The position numbers and the translations under genes were made by a program. Below, one piece after another: positions 5,241 through 59,929 of a DNA stretch of 64,000 bases (its first letter is position 1; each line of letters opens with the position of its first letter). The notes below the pieces were generated by a model. That model worked only from the letters and a program-made list of their open reading frames with translations. It was not told the DNA's origin and ran no database searches. The stretch spans positions 39,824-103,823 of the forward strand of contig DATLCN010000035.1 of NCBI GenBank assembly GCA_035526335.1, given 5' to 3'. Source of the DNA: Acidimicrobiales bacterium. GTDB taxonomy: Bacteria > Actinomycetota > Acidimicrobiia > Acidimicrobiales > GCA-2861595.

Positions 5241-5312
5241 CGCCCTCGGCAGGACTCGAACCTGCGCCACCGGCTCCGGAGGCCGGTGCTCTATCCGCTG
5301 AGCTACGAGGGC
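5241..5312 (-). tRNA. tRNA-Arg (anticodon CCG)
   Basis: The reverse complement reads GCCCTCG-TA-GCTC-AGCGGATA-GAGC-A-CCGGC-CTCCGGA-GCCGG-TGGC-GCAGG-TTCGAGT-CCTGC-CGAGGGC-G. This is a full cloverleaf with anticodon loop CT-CCG-GA. CCA is not encoded. Confidence 0.95.
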
Positions 5313-7325: not shown

Positions 7326-9083
7326 TCACATCCGGTCCGGAGCCTCGATGCCGAGGAAATCCAGGCCGCGGGCCAGGATCCTCGCCGTGACGTCGCACAG
7401 CGCCAGCCGCGAGCTCCGCTGCTCGTCGGAGTCGGCGCGGAGGATCGGGCAGTGCTCGTAGAAGGTGGTGAAGGCGCTGGCCAGTTCGAACAGGTAGGTA
7501 CACAGCCGGTGGGGTTGGAGCAGGGCGGCTGACTGCTGTACCGCGCTGTCGAAGGAAAGGAGCTGCAGCGCAAGCGCCCGCTCGGTGGGTTCGGCAATGA
7601 CCACGGCGCCGGCACCCACGCCCGCGCCCTCCTCGCCGGCCCGCCGGAAGATGGAGCGGATCCGGGCCCGGGCGTACTGGAGGTACGGGGCGGTGTTGCC
7701 GTCGAACGACAGCATCCGGTCCCAGTCGAAGGCGTAATCCCTGAGCCGGTCGCTGGACAGGTCGGCGTACTTCAGGGCACCGATGCCCACCGCCTGTGCC
7801 ACGGCTTCGCGCTCGGCGACGTCCAGCTCCCGGCCGTTCTCGGTGACCACCACCCTGGCCCGCTCCACCGCCTCCTCGACCAGGTCCACCAGCTTGACCG
7901 TCCCACCGGTGCGGGTCTTGAACGGTCGCCCGTCGGGACCCAGCACCGTTCCGAAGGCGACGTGCTCGGCCCGCCGGCCCTCACCCAACCACCCGGCCTG
8001 CCCGGCCACGGCGAAGACCATGGCGAAGTGCTGGCTCTGGCGGGCGTCGACGACGTAGACGATGCGCTGAGCATCGAGGTCGCGTACCCGGAACCGCAGG
8101 CCGGTCAGGTCGGTGGCGTCGTACCCGTAGCCGCCGTCGCTCTTGCGCACGATGAGGGGAAGCGGCTGGCCCTCCCGACCTACGAACCCCGGCGGAAAGG
8201 CACACAGGGCTCCCTGGTCGACGACCAGAAGCCCCGAGGCCTGCAACTCCTCGACCGTCTCGTCCAGGAGAGAGTTGTAGAAGCTCTCACCCCTGATGTC
8301 CTCCGGTGAGAGGCGCACGCCGAGGCGTCGGTAGACAGCCTCGAAGTGGCGTTGAGATTCGGCGACCAGGGCGCGCCACAGCGCCAGCGTCGGCTCGTCA
8401 CCGCCCTGCAGCGTCACCACCCTGGCCCGTGCCCGCTCGGCGAAAGCGGGATCGGCCTCGAACTTCGCCCGGGCATCCTGGTAGAAGGCGTCGAGGTCAC
8501 CGATGGAGGGACTGGGAGCGCCGGCCTCGGTTCCGAGGTCGGCCAGGTGCTCGATGAGCATGCCGAACGGCGTGCCCCAGTCGCCCAGGTGGTTCTGGCG
8601 TATCACTCGGTGGCCGACGGCGCCGAGCGTGCGCACCAGAGCGTCGCCGATCACCGTGCTCCGGAGGTGCCCGACGTGCATCTCCTTGGCCACGTTCGGG
8701 CCCGAGTAGTCGACGATTACCGTCTCGGGAGTCCCAGCACGGACCAGACCGAGATCGTCGTCCCCGGCCACAGCGGCCACGGCGGCGGCAAGATGGTCGG
8801 GACGCATGGTCAGGTTGATGAAGCCGGGCCCGGCCACCTCGACCTTGTCGCACTGGTCGTCCACCTCGAGCACCTCGACGATGGCCTGGGCGACATCGCG
8901 CGGGCTGCGCCCGACTAAACGGGCCATACCCATGGCTATATTGGCCTGGTAGTCGCCGAACTGCGCCTGCTGCGAGCGCCGGAGCTGGGGATCGGTGGCC
9001 GCGTACTCGGGTCCGAAAGCCCGGGTGATGGCGGTGGCGAACGGGGCCAGGAGAGTGCGCAGAGGGTCGGCCATTTGCATCAT
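7326..9083 (-). CDS. argS: arginine--tRNA ligase
   Basis: 585 aa. It has a class-I 'HVGH' ('EMHVGHLRS') and the C-terminal anticodon-binding region 'YLQYARARI'. Confidence 0.97.
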   Translation of the reverse strand: MMQMADPLRTLLAPFATAITRAFGPEYAATDPQLRRSQQAQFGDYQANIAMGMARLVGRSPRDVAQAIVEVLEVDDQCDKVEVAGPGFINLTMRPDHLAAAVAAVAGDDDLGLVRAGTPETVIVDYSGPNVAKEMHVGHLRSTVIGDALVRTLGAVGHRVIRQNHLGDWGTPFGMLIEHLADLGTEAGAPSPSIGDLDAFYQDARAKFEADPAFAERARARVVTLQGGDEPTLALWRALVAESQRHFEAVYRRLGVRLSPEDIRGESFYNSLLDETVEELQASGLLVVDQGALCAFPPGFVGREGQPLPLIVRKSDGGYGYDATDLTGLRFRVRDLDAQRIVYVVDARQSQHFAMVFAVAGQAGWLGEGRRAEHVAFGTVLGPDGRPFKTRTGGTVKLVDLVEEAVERARVVVTENGRELDVAEREAVAQAVGIGALKYADLSSDRLRDYAFDWDRMLSFDGNTAPYLQYARARIRSIFRRAGEEGAGVGAGAVVIAEPTERALALQLLSFDSAVQQSAALLQPHRLCTYLFELASAFTTFYEHCPILRADSDEQRSSRLALCDVTARILARGLDFLGIEAPDRM

Positions 9084-9189
9084 CGTCGGGGCTGGAGGGC
9101 GGTAGCGTCAAAAGATCCCGCCGCTTCCTCCCCACCTTCTACCGCTGACCGCCGTCACCGGACCCGGCGGCCGCCTCTCGATCGGCGGA

Positions 9190-10407
9190 GTGGACGTACT
9201 CGACCTGGCCGAGGAACACGGCACGCCGTTGTTCGTCTACGACGAGGAGCACCTGCGCCGGCGGTGCCGGGAAGCTGTCGCCGCCTTCGGTGCCGGCGTG
9301 GCCTACGCGTCCAAGGCCTTCCTCTGCCGCGCCATGGCTTCGTTGGTCGCGGAGGAGGGGATGTGCATCGACGTCTCCACCGCCGGCGAGCTCCACGTGG
9401 CCCTCTCCGCCGGCACTCCACCCGACCGGATCGTGCTCCACGGCAACAACAAGTCCGAAGTGGAGCTGGCCCGTGCCCTGGAGGTGGGGGTGGGTCGGAT
9501 CGTCGTGGACTCCTTCGACGAGATCGACCTCCTCCACAAGCTGGCCGGTGGGCAGGCCCAGACCAGCACCTCCCAGCGGCGAGCGCAGGTGCTCGTGCGG
9601 GTCACGCCAGGCGTCGAGGCCCACACCCACGAGTACGTCATGACCGGCCAGGAGGACACCAAGTTCGGGTTCAGCATCGCCAGTGGCGCGGCGGCCCTAG
9701 CCGTGGCCGCCCTCGCTTCGTCCGTCGACGTCGAGCTGGTGGGCATCCACGCCCACATAGGCAGCCAGGTCTTCGCCCTCGCCTCGTTCGTGAAGGCGGT
9801 GGAGGTTCTGGCGCCCTTCTTCGTCCCCCTCGGGCTGCCCGAGCTGTGCGTGGGCGGCGGCCTGGGTGTGGCCTACGTGGAGGGCGAGGAGGCGCCCACG
9901 ATCACGCAGTGGGCGCAGACGGTGCACTCCGCCTGCGCCGCCGCCGGCATCCCTTCGGGGGTCCGGGTGACGGCAGAGCCGGGGCGGGCCATCGCCGCCG
10001 CCGCCGGTCTCACGCTCTACCGGGTGGGCACGATCAAACGCCTGCCGGGCGTGCGCACCTACGTGGCCGTCGACGGCGGGATGAGCGACAACCCCAGGCC
10101 CGTTCTCTACGGCAGCGGCTACGAAGCCTTCCTGCCGAGGGCCACCCCCGCGGAGAGACCGCTGCGCGCCACGGTGGTGGGAAAGCACTGCGAGTCCGGC
10201 GACCTTTTGGTGCGCGACGCGTTCCTGCCGGAGGACGTGGTCGTGGGTGACCTGCTGGCCACTCCGGTGGCCGGTGCCTACGGCCATTCGATGGCGTCCA
10301 ACTACAACAAGGTGACCCGCCCACCGGTTCTGTTCCTCGCCGGCGGAGAGGCGCGGGTGGTGGTCCGGCGGGAGACACTGGACGATCTGTTGCGCCTCGA
10401 CCAGTAG
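9190..10407 (+). CDS. lysA: diaminopimelate decarboxylase (true start probably upstream of 9190)
   Basis: '...EHGTPLFVYDEEHLRRRC...' and 'VAVDGGMSDNPRP...CESGD'. See the finding on its start codon. Confidence 0.95.
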   Translation: MDVLDLAEEHGTPLFVYDEEHLRRRCREAVAAFGAGVAYASKAFLCRAMASLVAEEGMCIDVSTAGELHVALSAGTPPDRIVLHGNNKSEVELARALEVGVGRIVVDSFDEIDLLHKLAGGQAQTSTSQRRAQVLVRVTPGVEAHTHEYVMTGQEDTKFGFSIASGAAALAVAALASSVDVELVGIHAHIGSQVFALASFVKAVEVLAPFFVPLGLPELCVGGGLGVAYVEGEEAPTITQWAQTVHSACAAAGIPSGVRVTAEPGRAIAAAAGLTLYRVGTIKRLPGVRTYVAVDGGMSDNPRPVLYGSGYEAFLPRATPAERPLRATVVGKHCESGDLLVRDAFLPEDVVVGDLLATPVAGAYGHSMASNYNKVTRPPVLFLAGGEARVVVRRETLDDLLRLDQ

Positions 10408-10421
10408 CGCCGCGGTTACCT

Positions 10422-11717
10422 TTGCCCATGGACGCGGTGCGGGTCGGGGTGCTCGGGTGCGGCAACGTCGGAGGCGCGCTGGTCCGGCTGCTGACGGCGG
10501 ACGCCGCCGGCATCGCCGATCGCACCGGTGTGCGGCTGGAGTTGACGCGGGTCGCGGTGCGCGACCCCTCCAGGCCGCGGAGCGTCCACGTGCCCGCCGG
10601 CTGTCTGACCGGCGACGCCGCCGGCCTGGTCACCGATCCCGAGGTCGACGTGGTGGTGGAGCTGATCGGCGGTATCGAGCCGGCCCGCGGCCTGGTGCGC
10701 ACCGCCCTGCAGGCGGGAAAGCCGGTGATCACGGCCAACAAGGAGCTGCTGGCCCATGCCGGCGCCGAGCTGTTCGAGGTGGCGTCGAGGGCGAGGGTGG
10801 ACCTGCTCTACGAGGCGGCGGTGGCCGGAGGTATCCCCCTCATCCGCCCCCTGCGGGAGTCGCTGGCGGGTGAGCGGATCACCCGCGTCATGGGGATCGT
10901 CAACGGCACCACCAACTACATACTCACCCGCATGGCCGAGGAGGGGGCCTCCTACGCCGACGCGCTGGCCGAGGCCCAGGAGCTGGGGTACGCCGAGAGC
11001 GATCCCACCGCCGACGTCGAGGGGTACGACGCCGCGGCCAAGGCCGCCATCCTGGCCACCATCGCCTTCGGTGGTCTGGTCGTCGCCGGCGACGTCTCCC
11101 GGGAGGGGATCACCGGGATAACCGCGGCCGACATCGCCTTCGCCAGCCGGCTCGGCTACGTGGTCAAGCTGCTGGCGGTGGCCGAGCGGGCCGACAAGGA
11201 CGACGACGAGGTGGCGGTCCGAGTGCACCCGGCCATGGTTCCGGCCACCCATCCGCTGGCGGCGGTGCGAGGGTCGTTCAACGCCGTGTTCATCGAGGGT
11301 GACGCCGTCGGTGAGCTGATGCTCTACGGCCGCGGCGCCGGCGGGATGCCGACCGCCAGCGCCGTGCTCGGCGATCTCATCGACGCCGCCCACAACCTGC
11401 GCACCGGCGGCAGCGGTCGCACCACCACCATGGCTCCCGCCACCATCAGGCCCATGGCCGAGTTGTGCTCGCAGTACTACCTGAACATGGAGGTGGTCGA
11501 CCGGCCCGGTGTCCTCGCCGCCGTCTCCACGGTCACGGCCGAGCACGGGGTGTCGCTGGCGTCCTTCGAGCAGGAGGGTCTGGGTGACGACGCCCGGATG
11601 GTGTTCATCACCCACAAGGCCAGGGAGCGCGACATCCAGGACACGCTCGAGGACCTGCGGGGGCTCGACGTGGTGAAGCGGGTCGGCAGCCTCCTGCGGG
11701 TGATCGGCCCGGAATGA
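10422..11717 (+). CDS. hom: homoserine dehydrogenase
   Basis: 431 aa with '[14 protein letters not shown]', 'ITANKELLA' and a C-terminal ACT domain. Confidence 0.95.
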
Positions 11718-11724
11718 GCCGGGG

Positions 11725-12771
11725 ATGACGATGAAGGCGTGGCGGGGCGTCATCGAGGAGTACAGGGACTTTCTGCCCGTCTCGCAGGGCACGCCCGTGG
11801 TCACCCTGCAGGAGGGCGCAACGCCACTGTTGCCGGCCCCCCGTCTGTCCGAGCGCCTCGGTGCCCAGGTGTGGCTCAAGTACGAGGGCCTGAACCCGAC
11901 CGGCTCGTTCAAGGACCGGGGAATGACGCTGGCCATCTCCAAGGCGCGAGAGGAGGGGGCGGAGGCCGTGGTGTGCGCCTCCACCGGCAACACCTCCGCG
12001 TCGGCGGCCGCCTATGCCGCCCGTGCCGGGCTCACGTGCGGAGTGATCATCCCCGCCGGCCACATCGCCCTGGGGAAGCTGGCCCAGGCCCTCGTCCACG
12101 GTGCGAGGGTCCTGCAGATCAGGGGCAACTTCGACCACGCCCTGAACATCGTGCGCGAGTTGGGGGACCGGTCGCCGGTCACGGTCGTCAACTCGATCAA
12201 CCGCTACCGCATCGAGGGTCAGAAGACCGGCGCCTTCGAGGTCGTCGACGCCCTCGGCGAAGCGCCCGACGTCCACTGCATCCCCGTCGGCAACGCCGGC
12301 AACATCTGTGCCTACTGGAAGGGCTACCTCGAGTACCGGGAGGCGGGCCGCTCGTCCAAGCTGCCGGCCATGATGGGGTTCCAGGCCGCCGGCGCCGCCC
12401 CCATAGTCTCCGGCCACCCGATCGAGAACCCCGAGACCATCGCCACCGCCATCCGCATCGGCAACCCCGCCTCCTGGTACGGCGCCACCTCGGCGGCGAG
12501 CGAGTCCGGTGGCGCCATCAGCGCAGTGACCGACGAGGAGATCCTGGCTGCCTACCGGTTCCTGGCCACAGAGGAGTCGGTGTTCTGCGAGCCGGCCTCC
12601 GCCGCCTCGGTGGCCGGTCTGATGAAGGTCGGGGTGCCGCAGGGTTCGACCGTGGTGTGCGTTCTCACCGGGCACGGCCTGAAGGACCCCGACGTCGCCA
12701 TCAGCCAGATCGCCGTGCCCACCCCGGTGGACGCCGACTACGACGCCATCCGCAAGGAGCTCGGCCTCTGA
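11725..12771 (+). CDS. thrC: threonine synthase
   Basis: 348 aa with '[14 protein letters not shown]...[10 protein letters not shown]' and '[12 protein letters not shown]' (PLP lysine). Confidence 0.96.
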
Positions 12772-12790
12772 ATCTCCGAGTCTCCGCGTT

Positions 12791-14236
12791 TTGATCCGAG
12801 GGGGGCGGCGTACAGTAGGAGGGTCACGTCCCCTCGCCGATAGGTCCCATGTGCGGATCCTCGTGCTGGTCGACGGCGAGCACTACCCCTCCGTGGTGAG
12901 GGCCGCCATCGACCGCCTCCCGTCTCTTTTTCCCGGCACCGAGGTGGTTGCCGCCGCGCTGCTCGGCGGTTCCGAGAAGCTGAGCGGGACCGGCGCAACC
13001 GAGGAGCTGGAGGCCCAGTTGGGACTACCAGTCGTGACCGGCGCCGATGCCGACCAGGCCCTCGTCGCCGGTCTGGCCGCGACCCGGCCCGATCTGGTCT
13101 ACGACCTGTCCGACGAACCGGTGCTGGACGCCCGCAGCCGTCTGCGGCTCGTGGCCCGTGTGCTCGCCGCCGGTGTGTCCTACGAGGGTGCGGACTTCCG
13201 CTTCGACCCGCCGCCCCGCCCGCGTGTCGCCACCAAGCCTGCGCTGGCCGTGATCGGCACCGGAAAGAGGACGGGGAAGACGGCCGTGACCGCGCATCTG
13301 GCGCGGCTCCTGCGCCACCGGGGGACTGCTCCTGTCGTGGTCGCCATGGGCCGGGGTGGGCCCGCCACGCCGGAGATGGTCGACCCTGCCACCTTCGACC
13401 TGACACCCGAAGGGCTGGTGGCGCTGGCCGAGAGCGGTCGCCACGCGGCCAGCGACCACCTGGAGGACGCGGTGATGTCCGGAGCCGTGGCCATAGGCAC
13501 CCGCCGCTGCGGCGGGGGCATGGCCGGCGCTCCCGCCGACGACACCTTCGCCGACGGCGTCCGGATGGCCAACGACCGCCCCGAGCCGTTCCTGCTTTTG
13601 GAGGGCAGCGGCCAGGCCATCCCTCCGGTGGAGGCCGACGCCACCGTGCTGGTGATACCCGGGTCGGCCGATCCGGAACTGGTCGCCGGCTACCTGGGCG
13701 CCTATCGCCTGTTGCTCGCGGACCTCATCGTGATTACGATGGCGGTGACGTCGTTGGCGGCCTCGGTACCCCGCGCCAACTTCGAGCGGGATGTCCAACG
13801 GCTGTTGCAAGGAGCAGCGGCCAGGACCTGCCCCACGGTACGGGTCACGCTCCGGCCAACCCCCCTCTCTCCGATTTCCGGTCGACGTGTCTTCTACGCC
13901 ACAACTGCCCCCGCCTCCGCTAGAGCCCACCTGGCGGCGCACCTCGAGCACGAACATGGAGCGAAAGTCACGGGCATCTCCCATAATCTCGCCAACCGCC
14001 CCCTCCTTCTCGCCGATCTCGAGGCGGCCACGGGTGCCGACGTCCTCGTCGTGGAGTTGAAGGCCGCCGGTGTGGATCTGGCTGCCAGGTACGCCCTCGA
14101 GAGGGGCATCGAGGTCGTGTTCTGCGACAACCGCGTCGAGACTCTCGGCGGTGACGGCACTTTCGACGAGTTGAGCCTGGCCACAGCCGACCTGGCCGCG
14201 GATCGTTTCCGTCGGCGCACGGTGGCCAGACGATGA
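12791..14236 (+). CDS. cyclic 2,3-diphosphoglycerate synthetase-family protein
   Basis: 'VRILVLVDGEHYPSVV' at the N-terminus and the P-loop-like 'AVIGTGKRTGKTAVTAHLA'. The likelier start may be GTG 12851. ATGA overlap with the next gene. Confidence 0.78.
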   Translation: MIRGGRRTVGGSRPLADRSHVRILVLVDGEHYPSVVRAAIDRLPSLFPGTEVVAAALLGGSEKLSGTGATEELEAQLGLPVVTGADADQALVAGLAATRPDLVYDLSDEPVLDARSRLRLVARVLAAGVSYEGADFRFDPPPRPRVATKPALAVIGTGKRTGKTAVTAHLARLLRHRGTAPVVVAMGRGGPATPEMVDPATFDLTPEGLVALAESGRHAASDHLEDAVMSGAVAIGTRRCGGGMAGAPADDTFADGVRMANDRPEPFLLLEGSGQAIPPVEADATVLVIPGSADPELVAGYLGAYRLLLADLIVITMAVTSLAASVPRANFERDVQRLLQGAAARTCPTVRVTLRPTPLSPISGRRVFYATTAPASARAHLAAHLEHEHGAKVTGISHNLANRPLLLADLEAATGADVLVVELKAAGVDLAARYALERGIEVVFCDNRVETLGGDGTFDELSLATADLAADRFRRRTVARR

Positions 14237-15240
14237 CCGGACCGGGGGTTTCGCCCCACGCCGGCCCCCGCTACGTCGTCATCGACGACAAGGACTACGA
14301 GCTGCCCTACTCCAAGGGCCTGATGGCGTCCCGGATCATGGCCACCGGACTGGCGCCGGCCCGCGCCTTCCACGTGGCCGAGATCGTCGAAGCCCGGTTG
14401 TCGGCACAGTCCGACGGCGGCATCACCCTGCGGGAACTCAACGAGATGGTGCTGGAGGTGCTCACCGAGGAGGTGGGCGAGCGCTACGCGGCGTCGTTCG
14501 CCAAGTGGCAGCTGGTGGCGCAGCTCGACATCCCACTGGTCGTGCTCATCGGGGGTGCCACCGGGGTCGGTAAGTCCACGATCGCCACCATGCTGGCCAG
14601 CCGTCTCGGGATGACGCGTGTGATCCCCACCGACGCCATCCGCGAGGTGATGCGGTCGATGATCACCGAAGGCCTGATGCCCACGCTCCACACCTCGTCC
14701 TTCGACGCCGCGCGCCTTCTGCGCTATCCGGTCCCGCGCGGCGCCGACCCCACCATCATCGGCTTCCGGGAGCAGGCGGTCGCCGTGGCCGTCGGTATCG
14801 ACGCCCTCATAGCGCGGGCGGCCGACGAGGGAACCGACCTCATCCTCGAGGGTGCCCACCTCGTGCCGGGCTTCGTCGACGAGGCCCGGTTCAAGGGCCG
14901 GGCCGTGGTGGTGCCGCTGGTGGTGACGGTGGACGACGAGGAGCTGCACCGGAGTCACTTCCTCATCCGGGCCCACGAGGTCCGCAGCCGCCCGTCGGAC
15001 AGGTACCTCGACGCGTTCGACAACATCCGCAAGCAGCAGAAGTACGTAAAATCCATGGCGCTCGAGCACGGGATCCCCGTGGTTCCCTCGTACAGCCTCG
15101 ACGCCGCGCTGTCCCAGGTCGTCGACCTGGTCGTCGATCAGGCCTTCGAGGCCGTCCCGAAAACCAATCCCGAGCCGGTCGGCGCGCCGGCTCCCGACCA
15201 GTCCCCCTTCCCCGGCGGACGCAAGAGAGGTGCACCATGA
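14233..15240 (+). CDS. 2-phosphoglycerate kinase-family protein (COG2074-like)
   Basis: 335 aa with 'LPYSKGLMASRIMATGL' (ATP-cone-like N-terminus), the Walker A motif 'LIGGATGVGKSTIA', and 'IPTDAIREVMRSM...LHTSSFDA'. ATGA overlap with rho. Confidence 0.85.
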   Translation: MTGPGVSPHAGPRYVVIDDKDYELPYSKGLMASRIMATGLAPARAFHVAEIVEARLSAQSDGGITLRELNEMVLEVLTEEVGERYAASFAKWQLVAQLDIPLVVLIGGATGVGKSTIATMLASRLGMTRVIPTDAIREVMRSMITEGLMPTLHTSSFDAARLLRYPVPRGADPTIIGFREQAVAVAVGIDALIARAADEGTDLILEGAHLVPGFVDEARFKGRAVVVPLVVTVDDEELHRSHFLIRAHEVRSRPSDRYLDAFDNIRKQQKYVKSMALEHGIPVVPSYSLDAALSQVVDLVVDQAFEAVPKTNPEPVGAPAPDQSPFPGGRKRGAP

Positions 15241-17117
15241 GCGGAGAGCAGCAGCTCGAGCGCTCGGTACTGGAAGCCAAGGAGCGTGAGGAGCTTCAGG
15301 CCATCGCCGAAGCCCTCGGCGTCAAGCCGGCCTCCCGAGCCAGCAAGGCCACCCTGGTGGGCCAGATCCTGAAGGCGACGGGGGTGGAGGAACCGGCCAA
15401 CGGAAGCGCCGCGGCTCCGGCCCGACGTGGCCGGCGCCCGCGAACCACCACCACCGTTGCCGGCGCAGACGACGGCTCGACGGAGCATCCGTCCTCGCCG
15501 GACTCTCCGCTCGAGACCTGGCCCGGCGGTGCCGGCGAGGTGGCGGGCGATCCCGAGAGCCAGCTCATCGTCGAGTCCGACGATGGCCAGGATCAGGACG
15601 ACGCCGGTGCCGGAGGCAAGGGCGCGGCAGAGGGATCCACGAACCCCGCGCCCGCCGGAGCCGCTGAAGCCAACGGCGCCCATGGCCCGGCTGGCGAAGG
15701 CTCTCCCGTCGGCCAGCAGGCCGAGCGCACCACGTCGGCACCGGCGTACCGCACGAACCCGCAACGGGACAACAACCACGGGGCCGAGCGGGCGGTGCAG
15801 CGGTCGTGGGAGCCCGGCGGAGGCGGCCAGGGCCCGGGCCAGGGCCAGGGCACACCGGAGTCAGCCAACCGCCGGCGCCGCCGGCGGGGACGCGAGCGCG
15901 ACCAGCGCACCGAGCGGCCCGACCAGCGCTCCGAGCGCGACCTCCAGGGTTCGCCCCAGGACCAGCAGTTCCAGGGTGAGCCCGTGCCGGTATCGGGCCT
16001 GCTCGACCTCAACGACCAGGGTTACGGCTTCCTGCGGGCCCGGGGCTACCTGCCCAGCCCGGACGATGCCTACGTGTCGATCAGCCAGGTGCGTCGTTTC
16101 GCACTCCGCAATGGCGATCACATCGAGGGTGCCTGCCGCCCCGCGGGCAGCACCGAGAAGTACCCGGCCCTCCTACGCATCGACACGGTGAGCGGCCTCA
16201 CCCCCGAGGAGGCCCGCACACGTGCCCGCTTCGAGGACCTGACGCCGCTGTTCCCGGACCAGAAGCTGCGCCTGGAGATCCCGGGCGACAACGCCAACAT
16301 GGTGTCACGGATCGTCGACCTCATCTCGCCGATCGGCAAGGGCCAGCGTGGGTTGATCGTGTCGCCCCCGAAGGCGGGCAAGACGACGGTGCTCAAGCAG
16401 ATCGCCCACTCGATCGAGGTCAACAATCCCGATGTCCACCTCATGGTCCTGCTCGTGGACGAGCGACCGGAGGAGGTGACCGACATGCGCCGGTCGGTCA
16501 AGGGCGAGGTCATGGCCTCCACCTTCGACCGTCCGGCGGAGGAGCACACCGCCCTGGCCGAGCTGGCCATCGACCGGGCCCGCCGCCTGGCCGAGCTGGG
16601 CCGGGACGTGGTGATCGTCCTCGACGGCATCACCCGGTTGGCCCGCGCCTACAACCTGGCGGCGCCGGCAACCGGCCGCATCATGGCCGGCGGCATCGAC
16701 ACCGGGGCCCTCTACCCGCCCAAGAAGTTCTTCGGGGCGGCCCGCAACCTGGAGGAGGGGGGATCCCTCACCATCCTGGCCACGGCCCTGGTGGAGACCA
16801 ACAACCGCATGGACGAGGTCATCTTCGAGGAGTTCAAGGGCACCGGCAACATGGAGCTGCGCCTCGACCGCAAGCTGGCCGAGCGGCGGATCTACCCGGC
16901 CATCGACGTCAACGCCAGCTCCACCCGTCACGAGGAGCTGCTCTTCGAGCGCAACCAGCTCCAGCAGGTGTGGAAGCTGCGCCGGGTCCTGAACGCGCTG
17001 GCCAGCGAGGGAAGCGCGGCGAGCAGTCTGGAGTTGTTGATGGACAAGATCAAGGCCACCAGGAGCAACGACGAGTTCCTGTCCGAGATCGCCAAGGGAC
17101 CGGCGGCCGGCGTGTGA
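15237..17117 (+). CDS. rho: transcription termination factor Rho with a long low-complexity N-terminal insertion
   Basis: 626 aa. The N-terminal '[18 protein letters not shown]' is followed by about 200 aa of R/G/P/Q-rich sequence. Then come the RNA-binding and ATPase core ('SPPKAGKTT', 'LVDERPEEV'). Confidence 0.97.
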
Positions 17118-17147
17118 ACCCTGGCGGCCGGTAACCTCGGGGGCGAC

Positions 17148-17369
17148 ATGAAGACCGACATCCATCCTGACTACGTCGAAGCCAAGGTGAAGTGCTCCTG
17201 CGGGAACACCTTCACCACCCATTCCACCAAGGCCGACCTGCACATCGAGCTCTGCAACGAGTGCCACCCCTTCTACACCGGTAAGCAGAAGTTGGTCGAC
17301 ACCGGCGGCCGCGTCGAGCGCTTCGAGAAGCGCTACGGCAAGCGGCCGTCGAAGAAGCCGGCCGAGTAG
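17148..17369 (+). CDS. rpmE: 50S ribosomal protein L31 (Zn-ribbon type)
   Basis: '[22 protein letters not shown]...[13 protein letters not shown]'. Confidence 0.97.
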
Positions 17370-17448
17370 CGCCCACTCGGGTCATCCGGCGCCGGCCATC
17401 GACTCCGCCCGCCGCCAAGGCCTCTACGCGGCCAAGCTGCGGGCCCTT

Positions 17449-18387
17449 GTGGCCGAGAACTTTTCGGCCTCCGACGCCACGGGCGCCGCCGCCGCCACCT
17501 TCCCGGGTGGTGCCGCCCTCCGCCGCGGGTCCACCGGGTGGGTACTGGTCGAGGATCTCCCGGAGCGGGCGCTCGGTGGGGCTCTGGTCTGGGCGGCAAG
17601 GAGCGACCTCGAGGAACTGCACGTGCTCACGGGGAGCAAGGACGCCGCCGGCGTCCTTGCCCGCCGCGCCGGCGCCTTCCGCCGCCCGCCTCGGGTCTGG
17701 TTGACCCATGGCCGCACCGTGAGCCCGGCCGTCGCAGCGTCCCTTCCCGCTCTACGGCAGCCTGCCGGCGCCGATCTGGCCGTCGCCGCCATGTTCGCCG
17801 CTGCGGGGGCCGAGGCGGTAGTCGAACACGGCGTGCTCGTGGCCGAGGTTTTGGGCCTGGAGGTGGGGCGGGTCGTGGAGGGACGCCTGGACGTGGGCGT
17901 CGGCAAGCACGACCGGGAGGCGCAACGGCTGGTGCACGGGGACCGGCCCCCCGAAGAATCCCTGTTGGCAGCGGTGGCGGCCGTTCGAGAGGTGCGCCGA
18001 CCCGACGCCCCGGTCCACGAGATGAACCGCCTGGCCCAGGAGCGATGGCTCCGGTCGGTGGTGATGGCCAACCCGACGCTGGTCGGGGCCGCGTTCCTCG
18101 CACCCTTGCCGGACCCGGTACGCCGGGAGGGCCTGCGCAGGCCGGCGCCGGCGCCGTCCGCCGGCGTTGACGCCCGAGGCCGCCCCCTCGTCGTGGTGTG
18201 CTCGACGGGTATCGACCTGGACCTCGTTCCCACCGCGGCGGACGCCCGCCTCGGCCATGACCCCACCGCCCGGCTCATCATCGTCGTCCCCGAGGCCGAC
18301 GACCATCCGGTGACACGTGACCTGGCCGCCGCGCTCGTCGATCCCGCCGAGGTGGTCGCCATGCCGGGCGACTGGCGCCGCACGTAG
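17449..18387 (+). CDS. hypothetical protein (no family recognised)
   Basis: 312-aa ORF with high third-position G/C in this frame. The overlapping minus-strand ORFs are S/R/A-rich shadow frames. Confidence 0.65.
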   Translation: MAENFSASDATGAAAATFPGGAALRRGSTGWVLVEDLPERALGGALVWAARSDLEELHVLTGSKDAAGVLARRAGAFRRPPRVWLTHGRTVSPAVAASLPALRQPAGADLAVAAMFAAAGAEAVVEHGVLVAEVLGLEVGRVVEGRLDVGVGKHDREAQRLVHGDRPPEESLLAAVAAVREVRRPDAPVHEMNRLAQERWLRSVVMANPTLVGAAFLAPLPDPVRREGLRRPAPAPSAGVDARGRPLVVVCSTGIDLDLVPTAADARLGHDPTARLIIVVPEADDHPVTRDLAAALVDPAEVVAMPGDWRRT

Positions 18388-18396
18388 CCTTGACGG

Positions 18397-19458
18397 GTGC
18401 TCGAGCGATTGGCCGGACTGGAGGAGGAGTACGCCCGGCTGAGCGAGCGGATGAACGACCCGGCGGTGCTCACCGACCAGCATGCGCTGCGCGACACCGG
18501 CCGGCGCCTCAAGGAGCTGGAGCCCATCGTGGCCGCCTTCCGCTCCTACCGGGAGGCCACTGGGAACCTGGCCGCCGGCCGGGAGATGCTCGAGGATGCC
18601 ACCGGCTCGGACCGTGAGCCGCTCGTCGCCGAGGTGGCCGACCTCACCTGCACGATCGCCCGGCTGGAGTCGGAGCTCGAGGTTCTCCTCCTGCCCAAGG
18701 GCGAGAACGACGACCGCAACGTCATCGTCGAGATCCGGGGCGCCGAAGGGGGCGAGGAGGCCAACCTCTTCGCCAAGGACCTGTTCGACATGTACCTGCG
18801 CTACGCCGACAAGATGGGCTGGAAGCACGAGATGCTCGGCGCCGATCCCTCGGACAAAGGTGGGTTCAACGAGGTCAGTTTCCTGGTGAAGGGCGATGGA
18901 GTCTGGAGCCATCTGAAGCACGAGGGGGGTCCCCACCGGGTTCAGCGGGTTCCGGTCACGGAGTCGCAGGGCCGCATCCACACCAGCTCGGCCACCGTCA
19001 CCGTCCTCCCCGAGGCCGAAGAGCTCGACGTACACCTCGATCCCAACGATCTGAAGATCGACGTCTACCGCTCCACCGGTCCCGGGGGCCAGTCGGTCAA
19101 CACCACGGACTCGGCGGTGCGCATCACCCACCTGCCCACCGGGATCGTCGTGGCCATGCAGGACGAGAAGAGCCAGATCCAGAACCGGGCCAAGGCTCTG
19201 CAGGTGCTCCGCTCCCGCCTCCTCAAGGCTGAGCAGGACCGTCAGGCCGAGGAGGCCTCCGCCCAGCGCAAGAGCCAGGTGGGCGGGGGCGGGCGCTCGG
19301 AGAAGATCCGCACGTACAACTTCAAGGAGAACCGGGTGACCGACCACAGGATCGGCCTCACCCTGCACAAGCTCGACAAGGTGCTAATGGGTGAGCTCGA
19401 CGACCTGGTGGACGCGCTTCTCGCCGAGGAGCGGACCCGTCAGTTGCGTGGGGAGTGA
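18397..19458 (+). CDS. prfA: peptide chain release factor 1
   Basis: 353 aa with 'RVPVTESQGR' (PxT) and 'STGPGGQSVNTTDSAVRITHLPTG' (GGQ). Confidence 0.97.
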   Translation: MLERLAGLEEEYARLSERMNDPAVLTDQHALRDTGRRLKELEPIVAAFRSYREATGNLAAGREMLEDATGSDREPLVAEVADLTCTIARLESELEVLLLPKGENDDRNVIVEIRGAEGGEEANLFAKDLFDMYLRYADKMGWKHEMLGADPSDKGGFNEVSFLVKGDGVWSHLKHEGGPHRVQRVPVTESQGRIHTSSATVTVLPEAEELDVHLDPNDLKIDVYRSTGPGGQSVNTTDSAVRITHLPTGIVVAMQDEKSQIQNRAKALQVLRSRLLKAEQDRQAEEASAQRKSQVGGGGRSEKIRTYNFKENRVTDHRIGLTLHKLDKVLMGELDDLVDALLAEERTRQLRGE

Positions 19459-36924: not shown

Positions 36925-36979
36925 CCGTCCGGCCACCTCCTTGGCGACGGTCCCCGCCTCGACTCCGTAGGCTCCAGCG

Positions 36980-37723
36980 GTGCTCGGGCTGCCGGATTCG
37001 ATACGGGGTTGCTTGTTCGACCTCGATGGAGTTCTGACCCAGACGGCCACGGTGCACGCCACCGCTTGGAAGGAGATGTTCGACGCCTTCCTCGAGCAGT
37101 ACGCCGCTGCCACCGGTGATCCTTTCGTGGCCTTCGACCCGGTCCGGGACTATGGGGCCTACGTCGACGGGATGCCCCGGGCCGACGGTGTGCGGAAGCT
37201 CCTTGCCTCCAGGGGGATCGGCCTCCCGGAGGGGTCTCCCGGCGATCCGCCCGAGGCGGAGACCGTCGCCGGCCTTGGGAACCGCAAGAACGAGCTCGTG
37301 CTGAAGCTCATCGAGGAGCGGGGCGTCACCGTCTTCGACGGCTCTGTCCGGTATGTGCGTGCCGTTCGTGGTGCCGGCCTGTCGGCAGGCGTGGTGTCCT
37401 CCAGCGCCAACACGGTCTCGATCCTGGAGTCGGCGGGTCTCACCGAGCTGTTCGACGTTCGGATAGACGGGGTGGTGGCTGCGGAGCGGGGGCTGCCGGG
37501 CAAGCCCAGCCCCGACACCTTCCTCGCCGGCGCCGAGGCTCTGGGCCTGGAGCCCGAGGAGGCAGCGGTGTTCGAGGACGCCCTCGCCGGCGTAGAGGCG
37601 GGTGTGGCCGGCGGGTTCGGCTTCGTCGTGGGGGTCGACCGGATCGACCAGGCCACCGCCCTCCGTGAGCGGGGCGCCGACATCGTGGTCTGCGACCTGG
37701 CCGAGCTCCTGGACGGCCAGTGA
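36980..37723 (+). CDS. beta-phosphoglucomutase-family HAD hydrolase
   Basis: 247 aa with 'CLFDLDGVLTQT' (DxD), 'SSSAN' and 'VFEDALAGVEAG'. GTGA-type overlap with the GH65 gene. Confidence 0.88.
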   Translation: MLGLPDSIRGCLFDLDGVLTQTATVHATAWKEMFDAFLEQYAAATGDPFVAFDPVRDYGAYVDGMPRADGVRKLLASRGIGLPEGSPGDPPEAETVAGLGNRKNELVLKLIEERGVTVFDGSVRYVRAVRGAGLSAGVVSSSANTVSILESAGLTELFDVRIDGVVAAERGLPGKPSPDTFLAGAEALGLEPEEAAVFEDALAGVEAGVAGGFGFVVGVDRIDQATALRERGADIVVCDLAELLDGQ

Positions 37724-40083
37724 CGGCTTACCCGGCGTTCGAACCCGAACCCTGGTGCGTGCGGGAAACCGCCCTGGACCTCGAGACGCTGGCTCAGGCC
37801 GAGTCCATATTCGCCTTGGCCAACGGGCATCTCGGGCTGCGGGGCAACTTCGACGAGGGCGAGCCCTACGGCCTACCCGGCACATACCTGAACGGCCTGT
37901 ACGAGCTGCGTCCGTTGCCTTATGCCGAGGGCGGCTACGGGTACCCCGAGTCCGGCCAGGCCATCGTGAACGTGACCGACGGCAAGCTGATGCGGCTGCT
38001 CGTCGACGACGAGCCCTTCGACGTGCGCTACGGGCGGCTCCGCGCCCACGAGCGGGTGCTCGACATGCAGGCCGGCACGCTCACCCGCGACGTCGACTGG
38101 GTGTCGCCGGCCGGCCAGGCGGCGCGGATCCGTTCCGTCCGCCTCGTCTCGTTCTCCCAGCGGGCCGTAGCCGCCATCAGCTACGAGGTGGAGGCAGTCG
38201 ACGACGCCGCCCGCGTCGTGGTGCAGTCCGAGCTGGTGGCCAACGAGCCGCTGCCCGTGTCGGGCGACGATCCCCGGGCGGCGGCGGCACTGGCCTCGCC
38301 GCTCGTCTCGGAGGACCACGGCTGCCACGGGCCCGCCGGCGTCGAGCTGGTCCACCAGATGGCGGCCAGCGGACTGCGTCTCGCGGCGGCCATGGACCAT
38401 CTCGTTGCCGGCCCGCCGGGGACGGTGGTGAACGCCGAGTCCGAGCCCGACACCGGCCGCGTCACCGTCACCACGGTGCTCGAACCCGGGCAACGGCTGC
38501 GCATCGTCAAGCTGCTGGCTTACGGATGGTCGAGCCTGCGCTCGCGGCGGGCGCTGCGGGACCAGGTGGTGGCCGCGCTCACCGCAGCTCGCCACTCCGG
38601 ATGGGAGGGGCTCCTCGACGAGCAGCGCCGGTACCTGGACGATTTCTGGAACCGCGCCGGCGTGGAGGTGGAAGGCGACCCCGAGATCGAGCAGTCTGCC
38701 CGCTTCGCCGTGTTCCAGGTGCTCCAGGCCGGCGCCCGGGCCGAGGGACGGGCCATCCCGGCCAAGGGGCTCACCGGCACGGGCTACGACGGCCACGCCT
38801 TCTGGGACAGCGAGACCTTCGTGCTCCCGGTGCTCACCCACACCTTCCCCAAGGCGGCGGCCGACGCTCTGCGCTGGCGCCACTCCACCCTGCCGGTGGC
38901 GAGGGAACGGGCCCGGACCCTCGGCCACCGGGGAGCCGTGTTCCCGTGGCGGACGATCGCCGGGGAGGAGTGCTCGGGGTACTGGCCGGCCGGCACAGCC
39001 GCCTTCCACGTGAACGCCGACATCGCCGACGCCGTCGTCCGCTACGTGGACGCCACGGGGGACGAGGAGTTCGAGGCGGAGATCGGCGTGGACATCCTCG
39101 TGGAGACGGCCCGTCTCTGGTCCTCCCTCGGCCACCACGACGGCGGGGGCCGGTTCCGCCTGCCCGGCGTCACCGGGCCCGACGAGTACAGCGCCATCGC
39201 CGACGACAACGTTTTCACCAACCTCATGGCCCAGCAGAACTTCCTGGCCGCGGCCGACGCCACGCAGCGCCATGGCCAGAGAGCGACCGAGCTGGGGGTC
39301 GAGCCGCACGAGGTCGAGGCTTGGCGGAGCGCCGCCTCGTCGATGTACGTCCCCTACGACGAGCGCTTGGGCGTCCACCCCCAATCCAACTGCTTCACCG
39401 GCCACGACGTGTGGGACTTCGAGGCGACGAGGGCCGATCAGTACCCGCTGTTCCTGCACTTCCCGTACTTCGACCTGTACCGCAAGCAGGTGGTGAAGCA
39501 GGCCGACCTGGTGCTGGCCATGCACCTTCGCGGTGACGCCTTCACCCACGAGGAGAAGTGCCGCAACTTCGCCTATTACGAGCCGCTCACCGTCCGGGAC
39601 TCGTCGCTGTCGGCTCCCACCCAGGCGGTGATGGCGGCCGAGACCGGCCATCTCGAGCTGGCCTACGACTACCTGCGGGAGTCGCTCCTGGTCGACCTGA
39701 AGGACCTGCACGACAACGCCGGCAACGGCCTCCACCTCGCCGCCCTGGCCGGCGGCTGGTCTGCACTGGTGGCCGGTTTCGGCGGGTTCCGGGCCCGCAA
39801 CGGGGCCGTTTCGTTCGCACCCCGCCTGCCGGCGGCCATCACGCGCCTCGTGTTCCACCTGCAGTACCGGGACCGGTGCCTGCAGGTGGTGGTCACGCCC
39901 GAAGAGGCGAGCTACGTGCTCCAATCAGGCGAGCCCATCGAGGTCACGCACCACGGCGAGCCGCTGAAGGTGACGATGAAGGACCCGGTAAGCCTCCCCA
40001 TACCCGGGCTCTCGCCGATCACCCGCCCGGCCCATCCCCCCGGCCGGGCCCCGGCCCGCCGCCACCTCACTGCCGACGAGTAG
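37720..40083 (+). CDS. glycoside hydrolase family 65 disaccharide phosphorylase (maltose/trehalose/kojibiose-type)
   Basis: 787 aa with 'ESIFALANGHLGLRGNFDEG', 'GLTGTGYDGHAFWDSE' and 'DNAGNGLHLAALAGGW'. Confidence 0.92.
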   Translation: MTAYPAFEPEPWCVRETALDLETLAQAESIFALANGHLGLRGNFDEGEPYGLPGTYLNGLYELRPLPYAEGGYGYPESGQAIVNVTDGKLMRLLVDDEPFDVRYGRLRAHERVLDMQAGTLTRDVDWVSPAGQAARIRSVRLVSFSQRAVAAISYEVEAVDDAARVVVQSELVANEPLPVSGDDPRAAAALASPLVSEDHGCHGPAGVELVHQMAASGLRLAAAMDHLVAGPPGTVVNAESEPDTGRVTVTTVLEPGQRLRIVKLLAYGWSSLRSRRALRDQVVAALTAARHSGWEGLLDEQRRYLDDFWNRAGVEVEGDPEIEQSARFAVFQVLQAGARAEGRAIPAKGLTGTGYDGHAFWDSETFVLPVLTHTFPKAAADALRWRHSTLPVARERARTLGHRGAVFPWRTIAGEECSGYWPAGTAAFHVNADIADAVVRYVDATGDEEFEAEIGVDILVETARLWSSLGHHDGGGRFRLPGVTGPDEYSAIADDNVFTNLMAQQNFLAAADATQRHGQRATELGVEPHEVEAWRSAASSMYVPYDERLGVHPQSNCFTGHDVWDFEATRADQYPLFLHFPYFDLYRKQVVKQADLVLAMHLRGDAFTHEEKCRNFAYYEPLTVRDSSLSAPTQAVMAAETGHLELAYDYLRESLLVDLKDLHDNAGNGLHLAALAGGWSALVAGFGGFRARNGAVSFAPRLPAAITRLVFHLQYRDRCLQVVVTPEEASYVLQSGEPIEVTHHGEPLKVTMKDPVSLPIPGLSPITRPAHPPGRAPARRHLTADE

Positions 40084-41914: not shown

Positions 41915-42910
41915 CTAGAACTCGATCGAGCTGAACTCGCCCAGCTTGGATAGCTGGTGCTGGGCCCGGATGTGGCGCACGGTGCCCGACTTCGAGCGCA
42001 TGACCAGCGACTCGGTGGTGGCGTGGTCGTGGGCGTAGTGGACACCCTTGAGCATCTCGCCGTCGGTGATGCCGGTGGCGGCGAAGAAGCAGTTGTTGCC
42101 CCGGACGAGGTCGTTGGTCATGAGCACGGCCTCGAGGTCGTCGCCGGCCTCGAGGGCCGCCTGGCGCTGCTCGTCGGTGAGGGGCCACAGCCGGCCCTGC
42201 AGCTCGCCACCCATGCACTTGAGGGCGGCGGCGGCGATGACTCCTTCGGGCGTGCCGCCGATGCCGAACAGTATGTCGGCTCCGGTGTCCGGCCAGGCCG
42301 TGGACATGGCGCCGGCGACGTCACCGTCGGGGATGAGGCGGATGCGGGCGCCGGCGGCGCGGACCTCCTTGATGAGATCGTCGTGGCGGGGACGGTTGAG
42401 GATGACGGTGGTCATGTCCCGCACCTTCTTGCCCAGGGCCTTGGCCGCGGAATTGAGGTTGTCGGTGGCCGACGCGTTCACGTCGACCGAGCCGGCGGCT
42501 TGGGGGCCGACGGCGACCTTCTTCATGTAGAAGCAGGCGCCGGGATCGAACATGGCGCCCCGCTCGGACACGGCCAGCACCGACAGGGCGTTGCCCAGGC
42601 CGAGGGAGGTGAGCGTGGTGCCCTCCACCGGGTCCACGGCGATGTCGACCTCGGGCGGCGTGCCGTTGCCGATGCGCTCGCCGTTGTAGAGCATGGGAGC
42701 CTCGTCCTTCTCGCCCTCGCCGATGACCACCAGGCCGTCCATCGAGACGGTCTGCATCACCACCCGCATGGCGTCGACCGCGGCCCCGTCGGCCTTCTCC
42801 TTCTCGCCTCTCCCCATCCACCGCGCGGCTGCGAGGGCCGCGGCTTCGGTCACCCGCACCAGTTCCATTCCCAGGTTGCGGTCAGGGGCCTGCTTTTCGG
42901 CTGCGCACAT
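41915..42910 (-). CDS. glpX: class II fructose-1,6-bisphosphatase
   Basis: 331 aa with '[33 protein letters not shown]' and '[13 protein letters not shown]'. Confidence 0.95.
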
Positions 42911-42969
42911 GCGGCGAGGCTAGCCGTTTCCGCCACTGGGCCACGGGGGGCGGCAGGTACCGTCCGGGG

Positions 42970-52451: not shown

Positions 52452-52800
52452 CTCGTCACGATACCGGCCGGGCGAATGGATCCCGGCCTTAGTGCAGCAC
52501 CGACCGTGCGCTTCTCTCGACCCTCTTCGGCACTATCGACTTCTGGGTCATCCACCCAAGGAAGCGACCTCGCTCTTCAGACCCCGCCGCGCAGCCCGGG
52601 AGCATCCAACCCCTGACGCCCGGGTCCGGAACCCGGCCATTTCGCCGATGATCCAAAACCGTGGCCGGCGGGGCAGTGACGCCGCTGGAGACGAGCGTCT
52701 CGCTCACCCGTTCGAGTAACCGAGCGGCCCGCGGCCCGAACGCCGGACCGAAGTGATGATGGAGGTTTCCTTACTGTCCGCAGAGTGGTAGGCCAGAGGG

Positions 52801-54734: not shown

Positions 54735-54738
<4 letters not shown>
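52801..54738 (+). CDS. glgE: alpha-1,4-glucan:maltose-1-phosphate maltosyltransferase
   Basis: 645 aa with '[38 protein letters not shown]' and '[10 protein letters not shown]'. Confidence 0.95.
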
Positions 54739-56416
<1,678 letters not shown>

Positions 56417-56420
<4 letters not shown>

Positions 56421-57703: not shown

Positions 57704-57712
57704 AAGAGTCAG

Positions 57713-59923: not shown

Positions 59924-59929
59924 AGAGCC

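Follow-up and report, generated by a model that had tools for sequence, protein, structure and literature searches.

Two adjacent genes located between thrC and rho in an Acidimicrobiales soil MAG, a bacterium of about 70% GC, probably form a vertically inherited module for cyclic 2,3-diphosphoglycerate (cDPG) that stands in its normal ancestral position; the probability of this reading is put at roughly 0.7. The first gene, cpgS, encodes a homologue of cDPG synthetase (cDPGS) and the second a protein of the 2-phosphoglycerate kinase (2PGK) family. Together the products would lead from 2-phosphoglycerate via 2,3-diphosphoglycerate (2,3-DPG) to cDPG. The position of the pair is an old, inherited one of its own, with a homoserine kinase gene upstream and rho downstream, and the module is often found in Acidimicrobiia and in other deep-branching Actinomycetota. 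The window, i.e., the whole 64-kb stretch of DNA that was analysed, deviates from most relatives only by the absence of a kinase gene between thrC and cpgS. The features of the gene cluster are:

9190..10407, + strand: lysA, diaminopimelate decarboxylase, which opens the co-oriented cluster (TIGR01048, 418 bits, cut-off 297.9)
10422..11717, + strand: hom, homoserine dehydrogenase with an ACT domain (NF004976, 544.7 bits; Pfam Homoserine_dh, NAD_binding_3 and ACT)
11725..12771, + strand: thrC, threonine synthase (TIGR00260, 320.6 bits, cut-off 167.1)
12772..12850, no strand: 79-nt spacer between thrC and cpgS, read from the sequence; the position of thrB or HomK in relatives
12851..14236, + strand: cpgS, cDPG synthetase homologue of 461 aa (full-length match to PDB 8ORU/8ORK)
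14233..15240, + strand: 2PGK-family gene, 335 aa (NF003259 match; ATGA overlaps at both ends)
15237..17117, + strand: rho, 626 aa, actinobacterial long form (TIGR00767, 574.6 bits, cut-off 509.45)
17148..17369, + strand: rpmE, ribosomal protein L31 (Pfam Ribosomal_L31, E 4e-33)

Profile searches confirm the identity of the neighbours of the gene pair, which was first described in an earlier note on this DNA: argS, on the opposite strand, lysA, hom and thrC lie upstream of the pair, and rho, rpmE, prfA, prmC, sua5 and further genes lie downstream. Spacing is tight, with 14 nt between lysA and hom and, as read from the sequence, 30 nt between rho and rpmE. The two ATGA overlaps, at 14233-14236 and 15237-15240, are seen directly in the sequence; they link cpgS, the 2PGK gene and rho in a translational chain, as had been proposed. 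The rho start at ATG 15237 is right, because Rho family models align from approximately residue 10-12 of that ORF, and an SD-like AGAGAGGTG for rho is read within the 3′ end of the 2PGK gene. Consensus scans of positions 8900-18600 revealed no promoter-like site and no terminator-like site on the + strand. An Rfam scan of the cluster and of the 2PGK-rho spacers of relatives gave no hits, and promoter and terminator scans of those spacers were likewise negative. The backbone has the same order and orientation as the actinobacterial lysA-hom-thrC-thrB-rho-rpmE-prfA cluster (Rv1293-Rv1299 in M. tuberculosis). In deep-branching Actinomycetota, unlike in that type of cluster, the kinase gene is followed by cpgS and 2PGK, with or without metallophosphoesterase and transaldolase genes, and only then by rho; the window in addition lacks the kinase gene.

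The cpgS gene had been described as a 481-aa ORF that begins with TTG (12791-14236) and displays the motifs LVDGEHYP and GTGKRTGKTAV. The ORF and both motifs are present, but the start is almost certainly GTG at 12851, since the homologues and an identical NCBI protein (HUR18324.1; P0001, 461 aa) begin at MRILVLVDGEHYP. The family assignment is borne out by a full-length match to the solved enzyme of Methanothermus fervidus: in a phmmer search against PDB 8ORU/8ORK (E 8.8e-97), residues 2-455 align with residues 5-457 of the chain at 39% identity. The alignment spans the N-terminal domain, and the Pfam N-terminal dimerisation domain PF27272 (CpgS_N) is precomputed for this protein and for all 120 homologues listed.

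The residues of the M. fervidus synthetase that contact 2,3-DPG, Mg2+ and ADP are E45, K46, K145, R146, K149, T150, D208, P335, T353, E404 and K406; E45 and K46 are supplied by the partner subunit, K145 and R146 touch the substrate, and E305 is an adenosine contact (PMC10690619). Eleven of these 12 published ligand residues are kept in the window protein. Apart from E305, 10 of the 11 are invariant in an alignment that comprises 63 bacterial sequences, with the window protein among them, and 19 archaeal ones, and the sole exception is T353, which is Ala in one bacterial sequence. The equivalent of E305 is not kept, and is Val or Thr in the window depending on a one-residue numbering offset in the 8ORU/8ORK alignment. 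The Walker A motif GTGKRTGKT occupies residues 136-144, with K139, R140, K143 and T144 invariant in all 82 sequences. Judged from these sequence features, the product of cpgS is most likely a cDPG synthetase that would carry out an ATP-dependent cyclisation of 2,3-DPG.

The second ORF, of 335 aa (14233-15240), is present as first reported, with GGATGVGKSTIA, IPTDAIREVMR and LHTSSF. Its placement in the 2PGK family (COG2074) agrees with an alignment over the whole archaeal model NF003259 (E 1.7e-85; residues 15-307 against 6-295 of 306). However, the scores are below both NCBIfam 2PGK equivalog cut-offs (287.1 bits against 343 for NF003259, and 295.9 against 603 for NF008994), and therefore only family-level membership is assigned. 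The protein has a Walker A motif, GGATGVGKST, and its AF2 model (pLDDT 74.6) displays a P-loop NMP/gluconate-kinase fold that matches adenylate, UMP/CMP and gluconate kinases with a Foldseek probability of 1.00. Residues 16-90, modelled as a beta-hairpin and helices, show a weak similarity to the Pfam ATP-cone (E 7.4e-4; 20.5 bits, cut-off 25.8). All 73 of the 73 near-invariant positions, i.e., those conserved in at least 93% of the family, are retained, and the 2PGK sequences of loci devoid of a homoserine kinase gene have no substitution common to them alone. It should be noted that the family extends beyond kinases of 2-phosphoglycerate, as the mevalonate-3-phosphate 5-kinase (NF008996), named for a different substrate, is a P-loop kinase of the same family. 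The window protein scores 84 bits against that model (cut-off 250), compared with 287-296 bits against the 2PGK models, and it is paired with a cDPG synthetase, whereas the mevalonate-3-phosphate 5-kinase is unpaired. PGAP names both window proteins (HUR18324 and HUR18325) 'hypothetical protein'.

Relatives of the synthetase number at least 7,987 among database proteins, and at least 538 species genomes carry one. A synteny survey of 62 related bacterial loci gave the order lysA-hom-thrC-[GHMP thrB or PGM-like HomK]-cDPGS-2PGK-(tal)-rho. In every one of the loci counted (60 of 60), the synthetase gene is directly followed by 2PGK, and the two mostly overlap by 4 nt; the pair is also found in a bacterial locus outside of the thr/rho context (L073). 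Of 46 loci with sufficient sequence upstream, 41 have a homoserine kinase gene that separates thrC from the pair (24 a GHMP thrB, 17 a PGM-like HomK), an arrangement that spans Acidimicrobiia, Euzebyaceae, Aquicultor, MAGs labelled Coriobacteriia, and others. On the other side, rho is within 2.5 kb of the pair in 42 of 44 loci. Thus the pair is not peculiar to one genome, and it has a conserved slot of its own between the kinase gene and rho. The earlier proposal that it occupies the thrB slot has to be abandoned, since the kinase gene precedes the pair in these relatives and nothing was replaced.

The ATGA overlap between 2PGK and rho recurs in 12 Acidimicrobiia loci, but in other classes of Actinomycetota a transaldolase gene fills the space between the two. 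Of the suggested coupling to rho, the overlap is real; the adjacency of the pair and rho is probably an inherited gene order and not a functional tie, because the transaldolase gene separates them elsewhere. In 13 loci outside of the Acidimicrobiia, cpgS is directly preceded by a co-oriented metallophosphoesterase gene; an example from another class is positions 9087-9995 of locus L048.

O-phosphohomoserine is the substrate that threonine synthase needs, and a homoserine kinase must therefore be encoded at some place in the genome. Searches for this gene covered the 64 kb of the window within a 122.6-kb contig. HMMs made from 24 actinobacterial GHMP ThrB sequences and 21 PGM-like HomK sequences were run unfiltered against all stop-to-stop ORFs of at least 40 aa, and the best E values were 1.4 (ThrB) and 0.26 (HomK), in keeping with the earlier observation that the 64 kb are devoid of a thrB-like gene. 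Among the other window ORFs, Pfam annotation revealed no GHMP, HomK or ThrH-like candidate, neither protein of the pair matches the ThrB (TIGR00191) or HomK (TIGR02535) model, and the spacer at 12772..12850 is too short to hold a gene remnant. A conserved 312-aa ORF between rpmE and prfA was considered as a hidden kinase and rejected, as it displays no kinase motif or family match and as one related locus (L014) appears to carry both this ORF and HomK. The homoserine kinase of the window genome, whether HomK or thrB, is presumably situated elsewhere in the genome.

The gene in the thrB slot of Acidimicrobiia is a PGM-like HomK (PRK04200, 431 bits, cut-off 426), which scores 419 bits against TIGR02535, 'proposed homoserine kinase' (cut-off 446). 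Members of this family, HomK/ThrB2, which includes BT2402 of Bacteroides thetaiotaomicron, complement an E. coli thrB mutant (bioRxiv 10.1101/2024.10.14.618325). HomK fills the real thrB slot beside cpgS in 17 loci, mostly from Acidimicrobiia; it is unrelated to the 2PGK-family protein in both sequence and fold, and it is missing from the window. Among the best 120 matches listed for an Acidimicrobiia HomK query, down to 76% identity, the TPA entries HUQ63682, HEV3401485 and HEX2193162 belong to other genomes. Across relatives, thrB and HomK swap within one operon slot.

It had also been suggested that the kinase of the pair was recruited to phosphorylate homoserine. For the loci without a kinase gene, a takeover by the 2PGK-like kinase, or by the pair, would accord with the lack of ThrB, HomK and ThrH-like genes in the 64 kb, and with the closest relative of the window (L001/L004, 86% identity) and two further loci (L020 and L022), where no homoserine kinase gene is present within 10 kb. 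The 2PGK family also has a member, NF008996, that is named for another hydroxy-acid substrate, and for 8% of prototrophs thrB is reported as a gap that lacks an explanation (GapMind 2026). However, 41 of the 46 relatives have thrB or HomK in addition to the 2PGK-like kinase, which is coupled to the synthetase in every locus counted; the window protein keeps all of the conserved positions, and no substitution is specific to the loci without a homoserine kinase gene. In another locus, L003, HomK is simply 9 kb away, and the window is itself only a part of one contig of a MAG. Nothing was found that speaks for recruitment as such, and the chance of a takeover is very slim. A related proposition is that the fixed place of the pair after hom, thrC and thrB/HomK is functional, either with 2,3-bisphosphoglycerate from the 2PGK reaction, or cDPG, as the phosphoryl donor of HomK or, in the HomK-less cluster of the window, with the 2PGK-like kinase acting on homoserine. 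This too is very doubtful, since the pair is equally present beside the ATP-dependent GHMP thrB and the window 2PGK has not diverged. HomK also occurs in phyla that are not known to have the pair.

A recent horizontal insertion from a methanogen, with displacement of thrB in the window genome, might be supposed from the archaeal origin of the characterised enzymes and from the absence of a kinase gene between thrC and the pair. It is scarcely credible given the same position and gene order in several classes of Actinomycetota. A neighbour-joining tree nests the window synthetase within Acidimicrobiia and shows greater diversity among the bacterial sequences than within the one clade of Methanobacteriaceae; identity to the archaeal enzymes is no higher than 39-43%. 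In addition, the GC and GC3 contents of the pair are similar to those of the adjoining genes, and 2PGK is beside the synthetase gene, within 10 kb, in none of 19 archaeal (Methanobacteriaceae) loci. More weight is given to the possibility that the two proteins are orthologous to the archaeal enzymes but that their output is not a cDPG pool. They could supply or buffer 2,3-bisphosphoglycerate, e.g., as a primer of cofactor-dependent phosphoglycerate mutase, or make another small phospho-anhydride that a partner phosphoesterase turns over. The 2PGK scores below the equivalog cut-offs are in line with this, and the metallophosphoesterase gene 5′ of cpgS in other classes suggests a cycle of synthesis and hydrolysis and not bulk accumulation. 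Moreover, no report of cDPG or its synthetase in bacteria was found in the literature, nor any published evidence on function, and thus the earlier statement that the role of the bacterial homologues is not established holds. However, none of the residues that contact 2,3-DPG in the crystal structure varies among the bacterial proteins, a point in favour of an unchanged substrate and reaction, and if the pathway ended at 2,3-DPG there would be no use for a synthetase that consumes another ATP. An output other than cDPG is therefore considered unlikely.

A module that makes cDPG, inherited with its neighbours, is thus the preferred reading. In the proposed pathway, the 2PGK-like P-loop kinase would convert 2-phosphoglycerate and ATP to 2,3-diphosphoglycerate, and the synthetase would then close the ring by forming an intramolecular pyrophosphate at the expense of another ATP. 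The start/stop overlap may serve to keep both enzymes at matched levels. The pathway of M. fervidus (2PGK and cDPGS; PDB 8ORK, 8ORU) comprises the same two protein families: the synthetases can be aligned over their entire length and share the Walker A motif as well as the ligands of 2,3-DPG, Mg and ADP, and the window kinase aligns over the whole archaeal 2PGK model. The window pathway differs in its bacterial host and in the modest identity of its synthetase, and it is known here from sequence. It also differs in gene arrangement, since the bacterial genes form an overlapping operon whereas the Methanobacteriaceae genes are apart.

The outcome is deflationary in one respect, as there is no evidence for a new homoserine kinase or for an unusual insertion. 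According to the literature, cDPG is confined to hyperthermophilic methanogens (PMC10690619). Should the pair act as predicted, cDPG would not be methanogen-exclusive, and it would be made by many mesophilic Actinomycetota of soil and water, as represented by the species genomes counted above and by thousands of metagenomic proteins. The metallophosphoesterase encoded next to cpgS in other classes would then be a candidate cDPG hydrolase, and mesophilic, high-GC sources would become available of enzymes for a compound of biotechnological interest. The presumed role of cDPG would also move from thermoprotection to storage of phosphate, carbon or energy, or to osmotic balance; in a mesophilic soil host, a reserve of this kind or an anionic osmolyte would be more plausible than a thermoprotectant.

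The window belongs to an Acidimicrobiales metagenome-assembled genome. Its plus strand carries, in this order, lysA, hom, thrC, ORF1 (cpgS, a homologue of cyclic 2,3-diphosphoglycerate (cDPG) synthetase, cDPGS), ORF2 (2-phosphoglycerate kinase, 2PGK, family), rho, rpmE, a 312-aa ORF, prfA, prmC and sua5. They are followed by genes for an LMW phosphatase, rpiB, glyA, a GT4 transferase and the ATP synthase operon. A single tRNA gene (5241-5312, minus strand) is the only Rfam gathering-level match in the window.

Genes at the cpgS locus (window coordinates, strand, gene)
7326-9080, minus, argS
9190-10407, plus, lysA
10422-11717, plus, hom
11725-12771, plus, thrC
GTG start 12851 to stop overlap 14233-14236, plus, ORF1 (cpgS), 461 aa
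14233-15240, plus, ORF2, 335 aa
15237-17117, plus, rho

Intergenic distances from lysA to rpmE are, in order, 14, 7, 79, -4, -4 and 30 nt, and no terminator-like site was found on the plus strand of this region. The pair and rho are likely co-transcribed in this genome. The ATGA overlaps at 14233-14236 and 15237-15240 can both be read directly, and all motifs quoted in the earlier note are found in the ORF1 and ORF2 translations. ORF1 is present as described, except that its start is almost certainly GTG 12851 (461 aa) and not TTG 12791 (481 aa), because its homologues, like the deposited protein, have MRILVLVDGEHYP as their N-terminus. This deposited protein, NCBI HUR18324.1 (locus tag VMZ51_05225, 122,624-bp contig), matches ORF1 at 100% identity, and ORF2 corresponds to HUR18325.1; each carries the annotation "hypothetical protein".

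The assignment of ORF1 to the cDPG synthetase family is borne out by a full-length alignment with the crystallised Methanothermus fervidus cDPGS (8ORU/8ORK; E 8.8e-97, 39% identity) and by its ligand residues. Another solved cDPGS, 9SXB, is also matched, and PF27272 (CpgS_N) is assigned by the database's precomputed Pfam. In the M. fervidus enzyme, 2,3-DPG, Mg2+ and ADP are held by E45/K46 from the partner subunit and by K145, R146, K149, T150, D208, E305, P335, T353, E404 and K406 (PMC10690619). ORF1 keeps all of these except E305. Ten never vary across 63 bacterial and 19 archaeal sequences; T353 gives way to Ala in a single bacterial one.

ORF2 likewise belongs to the 2PGK family, with end-to-end matches to two NCBIfam 2PGK models, NF003259 and NF008994 (E 1.7e-85 and 4.7e-88), though with 287 and 296 bits it does not reach their equivalog cut-offs (343 and 603). 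On another model of this family, that for mevalonate-3-phosphate 5-kinase, it scores far lower, at 84 bits. No solved structure related by sequence was found. An AlphaFold2 model (pLDDT 74.6) predicts a P-loop NMP/gluconate-kinase-like core behind an N-terminal domain of ~95 residues, which has a weak Pfam call to ATP-cone.

One genome per species was scanned for cDPGS relatives, which are present in at least 538 genomes. ORFs of the best 80 loci (numbered L001 onward; ~60 bacterial, from Acidimicrobiia and other Actinomycetota MAGs, and 19 from Methanobacteriaceae) were searched with the window proteins, E. coli ThrB and a PGM-like protein from L002. The recurrent bacterial order is lysA-hom-thrC-[homoserine kinase]-cpgS-2PGK-rho-rpmE-prfA. 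In all 60 bacterial loci with enough sequence the 2PGK gene is immediately 3′ of cpgS, whereas no archaeal locus (0/19) has 2PGK within 10 kb; thus the tight linkage of cpgS and 2PGK in an operon is bacterial. In 42 of 44 bacterial loci rho is no more than 2.5 kb away. L025, labelled "uncultured Burkholderiales", shows the complete argS-lysA-hom-thrC-HomK-cpgS-2PGK order of the Acidimicrobiia type, and its cDPGS shares 57% identity with that of the window; this contig is probably mis-binned. One Acidimicrobiia genome (L002/L016; 11473-12249) has a 2PGK gene whose C-terminal half is degenerate; the called product is 258 aa long and matches ribosomal S15 in Pfam, and the gene is followed by PNPase, not rho. 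A rearrangement has broken the module there and left cpgS intact.

The earlier note had placed the pair in the thrB slot. However, a homoserine kinase gene lies within 4.5 kb upstream of the pair in 41 of 46 loci (24 GHMP thrB, 17 PGM-like HomK), and therefore the true thrB slot is upstream of the pair, which holds its own slot between the kinase gene and rho. GHMP thrB is found after thrC in L030-L059 and HomK in L005-L031, L053 and L080. The GHMP gene is above the TIGR00191 cut-off (231 bits vs 168). For the PGM-like gene, PRK04200 gives 431 bits (cut-off 426) and TIGR02535, "proposed homoserine kinase", gives 419 against a cut-off of 446; a non-Acidimicrobiia example passes the latter model with 569. 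Complementation of E. coli thrB by the HomK/ThrB2 family was demonstrated recently (bioRxiv 10.1101/2024.10.14.618325). The sharing of one operon position by these unrelated kinases across Actinomycetota classes is an in-place non-orthologous displacement.

The Acidimicrobiia HomK gene ends 4-111 nt 5′ of cpgS; in the window only the 79-nt spacer separates thrC from cpgS. Besides the window, four bacterial loci have no kinase within 4.5 kb. In L004, which is its closest relative (86% identity), a DUF2237 gene takes the kinase position; in L020 and L022 an ABC-2 permease is there on the opposite strand; L073 is the fourth. In L003 HomK is 9 kb upstream, beyond ABC transporter genes. Thus HomK has left the slot more than once. 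Unfiltered searches of every stop-to-stop window ORF of at least 40 aa, with HMMs from 24 actinobacterial GHMP ThrB and 21 PGM-like HomK proteins, gave best E-values of only 1.4 and 0.26, and Pfam annotation of the other ORFs yielded no homoserine kinase candidate, in agreement with the earlier statement that the 64 kb lacks a thrB-like gene. Since thrC is present, and from the pattern in relatives, we infer that the kinase is encoded elsewhere in the genome. The sole HAD hydrolase of the window was rejected as a candidate; it adjoins a GH65 phosphorylase, and beta-phosphoglucomutase is its most likely identity. These two genes, with GlgP-like, GlgE, GlgB and GH57/DUF3536 genes, belong to alpha-glucan and trehalose/maltose metabolism sets at 36971-40083 and 49920-62239; glpX is at 41915-42919, in surroundings rich in carbon-storage genes.

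Recruitment of the 2PGK-like kinase to homoserine, the more speculative reading of the earlier note, is very improbable: of the 73 alignment positions with at least 93% conservation in 60 bacterial 2PGKs, the window 2PGK retains every one, and the kinase-less loci share no special substitutions. Nor is the insertion reading supported. The same order recurs in related loci, its GC and GC3 are similar to those of neighbouring genes, and in a neighbour-joining tree the window is nested inside Acidimicrobiia, with archaeal sequences in one clade. Nothing here suggests recent insertion or substrate change.

The coupling to rho is real as an ATGA overlap, which recurs in 12 other non-redundant Acidimicrobiia loci. 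Gaps in the remaining Acidimicrobiia vary from a few to ~300 nt, and in other Actinomycetota classes the apparent ~670-nt gap, in which no Rfam elements were found, is a conserved 220-aa transaldolase/Fsa-type gene (L038 12391-13057, equivalents in ~20 loci; motifs GVTTNPSL and SPFVGRLDD; order cpgS-2PGK-tal-rho). Rho adjacency is therefore best interpreted not as a specific functional tie but as an inherited arrangement of genes that is compacted in Acidimicrobiia. Between rpmE and prfA, the 312-aa ORF (17449-18387, plus strand; GC3 0.87, Ala/Arg/Val-rich) has no Pfam/NCBIfam match or kinase motif and is kept only in a subclade (L001/L004, 1e-148; L003, L007, L014); it is a clade-specific conserved hypothetical within an otherwise universal gene run.

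The best-supported reading, given the conserved active site and invariable gene pairing, is that the pair runs the known two-step cDPG pathway (reviewed in PMC1224877 and PMC12136491). ORF2 would convert 2PG and ATP to 2,3-DPG, and ORF1 would convert 2,3-DPG and ATP to cDPG, the predicted product, with ADP and Pi. A role centred on 2,3-BPG rather than cDPG is a reasonable alternative. In 13 non-Acidimicrobiia loci a calcineurin-like metallophosphoesterase of ~290 aa, with no counterpart in the window, lies on the same strand directly 5′ of cpgS (L048 9087-9995, L030 9089-9973, L080 9055-9966 and 10 more); in L073 it is downstream of the pair. It has weak NCBIfam matches to cyclic-nucleotide phosphodiesterases. 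The protein is a candidate cDPG or 2,3-DPG hydrolase, as no gene is known to encode the methanogen hydrolase.

Methanogen cDPG is discussed as a thermoprotectant, osmolyte and phosphate/carbon reserve; in a soil bacterium that is mesophilic, service as a reserve or as an osmolyte would be more plausible. No report of cDPG, cDPGS or 2PGK in bacteria was found in the literature searched. The pair adds a new bacterial member to a known kind of pathway, and its genomic position is conserved and ordinary; the interest of the finding lies in how widespread predicted bacterial cDPG synthesis is in genomes.
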